Below, one piece after another: positions 43,833 through 44,931 of a stretch of 64,000 bases of DNA. The notes below the pieces were generated by a model. The model was not told where the DNA came from, did no database searches, and worked only from the letters and a program-made list of their open reading frames with translations. Each line of letters opens with the position of its first letter. The first letter of the stretch is position 1. A program made the position numbers and the translations under genes. Source of the stretch: a phage; sequence record PZ445554.1. One strand, given 5' to 3'.

Positions 43833-44066
43833 TTATTTTTTACGAAAAATTGATTTATTTTCTGCTGCCCATTTTTCAATAACTGCAGCAGGACCAGTAA
43901 CAACAATTTTATCACCGTAATCTTCTGCGGCGAGTTGACCGAAATTATCTAATGCATCACGAAGAACTCCATGAGGCATTTCACCCATTTTATCTTTCTT
44001 GCCAGTGTAAATAAACTCAACTTTTACATCAGCAGTTTCAGCAATAAATTCTTGGTAAGTTTTCAT
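43833..44066 (-). CDS. Internal protein I-like (capsid targeting sequence)
   Basis: Met MKTYQEFIAE leader; position matches T4 ipI. Confidence 0.6.
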   Translation of the reverse strand: MKTYQEFIAETADVKVEFIYTGKKDKMGEMPHGVLRDALDNFGQLAAEDYGDKIVVTGPAAVIEKWAAENKSIFRKK

Positions 44067-44100
44067 TTTGATTTCCATTTGGTTTTGTTTTGATAGGGTA

Positions 44101-44130
44101 ATAGTATCACAACTAAAACCCTATGTAAAC
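44101..44130 (-). promoter_or_regulatory. Early promoter upstream of IPI-like gene
   Basis: GTTTAC-N18-TACTAT. Confidence 0.55.
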
Positions 44131-44142
44131 AACTTTGTGAAA

Positions 44143-44400
44143 TTATTTTAAATCTTCTAATCGTTTCTTCATCTTAGAACCGTTCTTAGCGATTTCGCCT
44201 GCATCAGAGCATAATGCTAAAAGCGCTTTAACTTTAGTTTGATCTCCTTTAAAAGATGAAGGATCAACAGCAGCAGCAAGTTCTTTAATACGAGAGAAAA
44301 GGCGCTCAGCTTCAGCTAAAGCCATTCCAAGCTTTACTTCCATACCGTGGGAAGATTCAGTAATAGTAGTTTTTGTAGCAAACTCTTTGAAAGTTTTCAT
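44143..44400 (-). CDS. Internal-protein-like small protein (CTS-like leader)
   Basis: 85 aa; N-terminus MKTFKEFATK resembles the internal-protein targeting leader. Confidence 0.5.
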   Translation of the reverse strand: MKTFKEFATKTTITESSHGMEVKLGMALAEAERLFSRIKELAAAVDPSSFKGDQTKVKALLALCSDAGEIAKNGSKMKKRLEDLK

Positions 44401-44430
44401 TTTATTTTCCTAATTAATTTTGATGAGATA

Positions 44431-44460
44431 ATAGTATCACTACCTCATCAGTATGTAAAC
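44431..44460 (-). promoter_or_regulatory. Early promoter upstream of IP-like gene
   Basis: GTTTAC-N18-TACTAT. Confidence 0.55.
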
Positions 44461-44472
44461 AACTTTGTGAAA

Positions 44473-44931
44473 TTATTTTAAATCGTCTGCCCAATCGAGT
44501 TTAAGAGGCTCTTTATATTCACGATCTAATACGACCGGAATTTGTACATCACCGCTAAATGATAAGGGTCCAACATTATAAGACAATGTTATATGCGGTG
44601 TGTAATCATCAAAATCATGTGTAGCACCTAGTGCCCGCGCATACATGTGTCGACAGCGCAGATATTCAGAATCTAGCACAAGTACAAGAGTCGATCCATC
44701 TTGTGTTTTCCATACTTCTAAATGCCCAGAAGAAGCTACTTCAAAACTTCCACTCGATGGAACATACGGAACATTTACTCTCGAATAACATATAGTCGAA
44801 TGAATTTTTTCTCTAGGAACTGGATTAGGAACACGTAAAGAGCGCTGAAGTTCTTCCAGCGCATCAAGTGTTAATTCTGAAAACTTAGCTGCTACATAAA
44901 GACCCGTTGAAAAGTCTTTAAATTCCATCAT
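44473..44931 (-). CDS. 57B: 2H phosphoesterase superfamily protein (position and size of T4 57B, the anti-CBASS phosphodiesterase Acb1)
   Basis: 152 aa; two H-x-T/S motifs (HSTICYS and HITLSY) typical of 2H phosphoesterases. Confidence 0.6.

Follow-up and report, generated by a model that had tools for sequence, protein, structure and literature searches.

T4-type phages carry two variable loci for internal proteins (IPs), one between the genes 57B and trna.4 and the other around e and denV. The present analysis deals with the first of these loci in sequence record PZ445554.1, a stretch of phage DNA of 64,000 nucleotides that is called the window below. The segment in question (43833-44931) holds two small genes with internal-protein leaders, ip5 and ip6, and the gene 57B.

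The closest described systems are those of phage T4 itself. In T4 IPIII, a leader of ten residues is enough to bring a protein into the prohead core; within it, positions 4 and 7 are important for targeting and positions 8 and 10 for processing, and the prohead protease gp21 cuts after L/I-x-E (PMC9026906). T4 Ip1, Ip2 and Ip3 each block one distinct type IV restriction enzyme of the GmrSD family (PMC12373910). For the Acb1 protein, Hobbs et al. (2022) defined the HxT/HxT tetrad H44/T46/H113/T115 and used H44A/H113A as the dead mutant; T4 with acb1 deleted was restricted by CBASS, the antiphage signalling system based on cyclic oligonucleotides (PMC9117128). A model of gene shuffling by promoter-early stem-loop (PeSL) elements was described by Arbiol et al. 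(2010; PMC2839356) and Comeau et al. (2014; PMC4122927), who state that such shuffling was first observed at the T-even IP loci.

The best explanation is that this is the hyperplastic 'ipI' locus between 57B and trna.4 of a T4-like phage, in which the common ip5-ip6 allele replaces ipI beside acb1. A probability of about 0.85 was assigned to this reading as a whole, including the proposed roles of the Ip proteins and the exchange of genes through cassettes. In the region from 43.2 to 45.9 kb of the window, all coding sequences are on the minus strand. The gene order in the direction of transcription (gene 1 - 57A - 57B - ip5 - ip6 - trna.4) is that of phage T4. A megablast search with the 1572-bp block 43589-45160 matched 782 phage records, 291 of them with a query coverage of at least 80%. 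Among the best matches, identity was 98.3% over the full length in many genomes, and the top-listed records were all Tequatrovirus-type phages of Escherichia, Shigella or Yersinia. Gene order and megablast matches together therefore assign the window to a T4-like (Tequatrovirus) phage.

The internal-protein genes ip5 and ip6

The genes ip5 (44143-44400, minus strand, 85 amino acids) and ip6 (43833-44066, minus strand, 77 amino acids) are located between 57B and trna.4, which is the exact slot of T4 ipI. Their products were annotated as putative internal (injected) head proteins, ip5 from its identity to RB15 Ip5 and PHROG 3499, and ip6 from PHROG 8111, its leader and existing ip6 annotations. 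A six-frame scan of the window for a leader of the MKT[YF][QK]EF type returned three open reading frames only, those of Ip4, Ip5 and Ip6. The original prediction had recognised two consecutive small genes with such leaders. This was borne out by alignment, as the leader of Ip6 (MKTYQEFIAE) equals those of T4 IPII and IPIII at 10 of 10 residues, and MKTFKEF of Ip5 equals T4 IPI at 7 of 7. By sequence comparison, the two genes are members of the named internal-protein families Ip5 and Ip6.

Ip5 starts with MKTFKEFATKTTITE, resembling MKTFKEFTSTTTPVSTITE of T4 IPI, and has F4 and F7 as in IPI. The residues I13-T-E15 form a gp21 site (L/I-x-E) at the end of this IPI-type leader, and cleavage after E15 is predicted to give a mature protein of about 7.5 kDa with an isoelectric point (pI) of 9.2. 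The protein is 100% identical to RB15 Ip5 (CAA84462; Repoila 1994) and matched PHROG 3499 ('internal head protein') at 1.2e-49. About 270 phage records encode it at 80% identity or more (tblastn), and a word-indexed search returned 5 protein clusters, with source names from T4-like phages only. The fold predicted by AlphaFold from a shallow alignment is a two-helix hairpin (predicted local distance difference test score, pLDDT, 71); a Foldseek search of this model against BFVD gave nothing significant. Paralogues of Ip5 with about 48% identity were found in about 228 phage genomes (e.g. NC_041864, KF562341 and NC_018855). Among the matches listed, they adjoin the lysozyme gene, i.e. the other IP locus, which suggests a transfer of this family between the IP loci.

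In Ip6, the residues I8-A-E10 form the gp21 site (L/I-x-E) at the end of the leader, and the mature protein predicted from cleavage after E10 has about 7.4 kDa and a pI of 6.5. The start at MKTYQ was chosen because its ATG has GGA about 8 nt upstream and because a targeting leader must be N-terminal. A longer version of 81 amino acids (MEIK-MKTYQ, start at 44078) has no Shine-Dalgarno sequence before its ATG. Several database entries for Ip6 (clusters P0006-P0008 and P0012) comprise 81-98 amino acids, either from the upstream ATG (MEIK...) or from read-through of the stop codon. These calls, in which the N-terminal targeting leader is buried, are likely misannotations. Ip6 matched PHROG 8111 ('internal virion protein') at 1.2e-52, is 100% identical to copies in more than 100 sequenced phages, and was found at 80% identity or more in about 220 phage records (tblastn). 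The gene is annotated as ip6 in JK08, fFiEco06, VR7 and PST, and ip5 is likewise annotated in JK08. The AlphaFold model, also from a shallow alignment, is ferredoxin-like (pLDDT 82), and Foldseek against BFVD returned Ip6 relatives only. The word-indexed search gave 11 protein clusters with source names from T4-like phages only. When 1.84 billion protein-cluster representatives were searched with a profile, 7 matches at E <= 0.001 were obtained, two of which were repetitive and spurious.

For neither protein did Pfam give a match above threshold, NCBIfam any match, or a sequence search of the PDB anything significant. The structural neighbours of both models were generic and uninformative on function. 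On these comparisons, Ip5 and Ip6 are orphan families with members in T4-like phages.

Promoter cassettes and exchange of genes in the slot

Three intergenic cassettes, all on the minus strand, separate the genes of the slot. Cassettes 1 (44401-44472) and 2 (44067-44142) were delimited by motif search, promoter scan and RNA folding, and cassette 3 (43775-43832), which closes the variable slot, by motif search and RNA folding. The motif GTTTAC-N15-TGATACTAT occurs on the minus strand with zero mismatches at 43803-43832, 44101-44130 and 44431-44460, before trna.4, ip6 and ip5, respectively. At up to 2 mismatches, it has 10 matches in the window compared to 0.34 expected from shuffles. All ten matches (GTTTAC-N15-TGRTACTAT) are on the minus strand (13048, 24248, 25687, 29259, 36739, 40224, 40783, 43803, 44101 and 44431). 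As a side observation, these matches mark early transcription units across the window. In all three cassettes, TTTACA or TTTACT is followed by N17 and TACTAT with TG upstream, corresponding to a predicted T4 early promoter of the sigma-70 type with a TG-extended -10 element. The original prediction had placed a promoter cassette in front of each of the two small genes; ip5 and ip6 do have a zero-mismatch cassette each. 57B has none of its own.

Each cassette also encodes a stable stem-loop, for which z-scores were calculated from the fold energy against shuffles. In cassette 1, the promoter (44431-44460) is accompanied by a 13-bp stem-loop at 44421-44450 (-14.8 kcal/mol, z = -4.25) and the Shine-Dalgarno sequence AGGAAA for ip5. 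Cassette 2, upstream of ip6, has its promoter at 44101-44130 and a stem-loop at 44093-44124 (-13.7 kcal/mol, z = -3.0). Cassette 3, upstream of the trna.4-like gene, has its promoter at 43803-43832 and a 14-bp stem-loop at 43792-43823 (-18.5 kcal/mol, z = -4.7). The stem-loops (13-14 bp) overlap the -10 element in each cassette and would be complete only in transcripts arriving from upstream. This arrangement fits an attenuator or a stabiliser of the 3' end for the preceding gene.

The content of the 57B-trna.4 slot is combinatorial and varies between phages: it is ipI in T4, ip5-ip7 in T2, ip5-ip9-ip7-ip8 in RB15, and ip5-ip6 in the window and in about 290 other genomes. Cassette 1 (before ip5) has an almost identical counterpart in front of T4 ipI, and cassette 2 (before ip6) is 96.6% identical to the T4 cassette before trna.4. 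In pairwise BLAST comparisons with T4, T2 and RB15, the breakpoints were located either inside a cassette or about 35 nt within the 5' ends that code for the leaders, and homology to T4 and T2 resumed in cassette 3. The cassettes and the conserved leader-coding 5' ends probably offer short homologies for the recombinational exchange of ip genes between phages. The breakpoint positions fit the published PeSL model of modular shuffling.

Function of 57B and proposed functions of the internal proteins

The gene 57B (acb1; 44473-44931, minus strand, 152 amino acids) was identified by Pfam Acb1, identity to T4 and PDB 7t26. Its product is 100% identical to T4 57B (NP_049750) over 152 amino acids and matched Pfam Acb1 (PF23474) over profile positions 1-144 of 144 (E = 2.7e-60). 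It also matched the Acb1 chain of PDB 7t26 (E = 4.2e-62, 68% identity); 7t26 and 7t27 are entries of a crystallised Acb1 homologue. Two H-x-T/S motifs had been predicted in this protein, and they are present as H44-S-T46 and H113-I-T115; the tetrad, with both catalytic histidines, does not vary when the protein is aligned with T4 57B and the 7t26 chain. The gene differs from that of T4 by 6 nucleotides, all synonymous at the third codon position, and from that of phage JK08 by 14 nucleotides, all synonymous, which shows strong purifying selection on the protein. Biochemical and genetic work on the identical T4 protein has shown that it degrades CBASS signals (PMC9117128). By sequence identity, 57B is Acb1, a cyclic-oligonucleotide phosphodiesterase of the 2H fold with anti-CBASS function, and its activity is known from the T4 protein. 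The assignment to the T4 57B position was hence correct, and the term Acb1-like in the original prediction can be replaced by Acb1. The ATG of 57B overlaps the stop codon of 57A (ATGA, 44928-44931) and has no cassette in front, so 57B is expressed together with 57A. The claim of a candidate counter-defence island upstream of 57A was right as to the island but not as to its place, as transcription reaches the island after 57A and it is thus downstream of that gene. An anti-defence island of ipI and 57B was described already by Hobbs et al. (PMC9117128).

For the two small genes, a mechanism can be proposed from the biology of their T4 counterparts. Ip5 and Ip6 would each be transcribed from their own early-type sigma-70 promoter, and the N-terminal capsid-targeting leader would take them into the prohead scaffold core. 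There, gp21 would remove the leader after the I-x-E site, i.e. after E10 in Ip6 and after E15 in Ip5. The mature proteins (about 7.5 kDa) would be ejected together with the DNA and would therefore be present before expression of any phage gene. Each may then disable one specific nuclease of the host that attacks modified DNA on entry, e.g. a type IV restriction enzyme of the GmrSD family. By analogy with Ip1, Ip2 and Ip3, the most likely role of Ip5 and Ip6 is that of injected inhibitors acting on host enzymes that attack incoming modified DNA. Acb1, as shown for the identical T4 protein, is made in the infected cell, here with its translation coupled to that of 57A.

Several points weigh against this reading. 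The presence of Ip5 and Ip6 in the virion, their cleavage and their ejection are deduced from their leaders and from the biology of T4 IPI-III; packaging of Ip6 and its cleavage after E10 are strongly inferred because its leader equals that of IPIII at all ten positions. The T4 late-promoter octamer TATAAATA was sought in the ip cassettes and was found in none of them, so the supply of both proteins at prohead assembly would come from early synthesis or from read-through from the octamer in gene 1. The nearest such late-promoter-like octamer upstream on the coding strand is located inside gene 1 (45514-45521, minus strand) and may give rise to late transcripts that run through 57A-57B-ip5-ip6. 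T4 gene 1 holds an equivalent octamer at the equivalent place, and the timing of expression should therefore follow T4. The cassette stem-loops have no T-run, and a scan for canonical intrinsic terminators called none of them. The products of ip4-10 showed no reproducible inhibition of several GmrSD variants (PMC12373910, Supplementary Fig. 9). Finally, BLASTP gave no alignment at E <= 100 between mature Ip6 and IPI* or between mature Ip5 and IPII; this is weak evidence, since the known inhibitors are mutually unrelated too.

The lack of a GmrSD target for ip4-10 in the published test (PMC12373910) also agrees with two other roles for Ip5 and Ip6. The proteins might be mainly structural or physical components of the head, acting in charge neutralisation, DNA packing or prohead assembly like IPIII, rather than dedicated inhibitors of defence. 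Head assembly is slower and the burst smaller in T4 IPIII mutants (PMC9026906), and mature Ip5 is basic (pI 9.2). However, mature Ip6 is near neutral (pI 6.5) and a poor counter-ion for DNA, the slot is swapped freely among phages that are otherwise 95-98% identical, which fits a function in an arms race better, and all three T4 Ips have defence targets (PMC12373910). A mainly structural role was thus considered unlikely. Somewhat less doubtful, though still tentative, is an inhibition by Ip5 and/or Ip6 of an immediate-early host defence or function other than GmrSD, e.g. another DNA sensor or nuclease. Besides the negative GmrSD panel, the unrelatedness of the mature parts to IPI and IPII and the unlike predicted folds of Ip5 and Ip6 speak for it; on the other hand, every Ip with a known target acts on a GmrSD enzyme, and the GmrSD family is very diverse with few variants tested so far (PMC12373910). 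At a similar, rather low level of confidence, Ip5 and/or Ip6 could inhibit a defence not yet tied to internal proteins, be it a GmrSD subtype that the published panel did not include or some other immediate-early system. In that case, the phage, with its set of Ip4, Ip5 and Ip6 and without Ip1, Ip2 and Ip3, would differ from T4 in host range. For 57B, a role as RNA ligase or RNA repair enzyme of the 2'-5' RNA ligase type instead of an anti-CBASS function is highly improbable. The product name 'RNA ligase' is used in RefSeq T4 and PHROG 755, and Pfam 2_5_RNA_ligase2 matched weakly (E = 0.11); the 2H fold is common to both families, and this label reflects the shared fold and nothing more. With a cut-off of 27 bits in both cases, Acb1 scored 202.7 bits and 2_5_RNA_ligase2 scored 13 bits, one far above and the other far below its gathering score, and the annotation was rejected. 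The degradation of CBASS signals by the identical T4 protein and the restriction of the T4 acb1 deletion mutant by CBASS (PMC9117128) also speak against the ligase reading.

Neighbouring genes and comparison with described systems

The flanks of the slot are conserved. Gene 1 (45158-45883, minus strand) encodes a deoxynucleoside monophosphate kinase (Pfam DNMK, 3.6e-106) and is followed by the conserved upstream flank 57A (44928-45158, minus strand), the tail-fibre chaperone, assigned by Pfam GP57 (PF17594, 2.7e-50) and by T4 gene order. Relative to T4, 57A comprises 76 instead of 80 amino acids, with the C-terminal tail ...ADEE compared to ...ADEAKDEE, and carries the substitutions I6V and H47R. 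The conserved downstream flank is the trna.4-like gene (43589-43774, minus strand) for a membrane protein of 61 amino acids, assigned by PHROG 1692 and the T4 trna.4 position; its nucleotide identity to T4 is 97.7%. Two small genes homologous to T4 trna.3 and trna.2 follow (42889-43588, minus strand), and then ten transfer RNA (tRNA) genes (41837-42791, minus strand) for Arg, Asn, Tyr, Met, Thr, Ser, Pro, Gly, Leu and Gln. T4 has 8 tRNA genes; those for Asn and Tyr are the extra ones here, and the position of T4 tRNA-Ile was called tRNA-Met (CAT anticodon). Directly downstream of the gene for tRNA-Arg, close to the site of the homing endonuclease segB in T4, an open reading frame of 184 amino acids (41261-41815, minus strand) matches T5orf172/MUG113 (GIY-YIG-related) domains and probably encodes a homing endonuclease other than segB.

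The third leader-bearing gene (35814-36287, minus strand; MKTYQEFITE, 157 amino acids) encodes Ip4. It shares 99-100% identity with its counterparts in RB51 and numerous other phages, matched Pfam DUF7412 at 5.7e-96, and is located downstream of denV (36297-36713). The slot of T4 ipII and ipIII between e (36773-37267) and denV is empty here. Within the window, the internal proteins are hence Ip4, Ip5 and Ip6, and none of T4 Ip1, Ip2 and Ip3 is present.

All elements of this locus have been published, from the genes with their names and the logic of the leaders to the function of Acb1, the view of ipI and 57B as an anti-defence island and the shuffling through cassettes, and the locus is a known one in one of its commonest allelic forms. 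The value of the analysis is in correct annotation, as 57B is entered in many records as 'RNA ligase' or 'hypothetical protein', and 'hypothetical' is likewise the label of ip5 and ip6. Both Ip5 and Ip6 are short and abundant orphan proteins.

Four described systems can be compared with it. T4 Acb1 (gp57B; PMC9117128; PF23474) shares the same sequence of 152 amino acids, the tetrad and the place after 57A with the ATGA overlap; the 6 synonymous nucleotide differences leave no difference at the protein level. T4 IPI*, the inhibitor of the type IV enzyme GmrS/GmrD, is alike in the 57B-trna.4 slot, the upstream cassette and the IPI-type leader found in Ip5 (MKTFKEF...TITE). It differs in that the mature part is unrelated in sequence and in that the published GmrSD tests were negative for ip4-10. 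Among other ip5 or ip6 phages, RB15 has the same Ip5 sequence and more than 100 have the same Ip6 sequence; the partner behind ip5 differs, which is ip6 here, ip7 in T2 and ip9-ip7-ip8 in RB15. PeSL cassettes have in common with the present ones the early promoter TTTACW-N17-TAYWAT (PST/T4 consensus, PMC4122927), a stable stem-loop beside variable non-essential genes, and recombination breakpoints inside the cassette. The cassettes of the window are different in that their stem-loop overlaps the -10 element and is devoid of a T-tract, and the T-even IP-locus elements are analogues, not homologues, of the RB49/phi1 PeSLs (Arbiol et al., PMC2839356).

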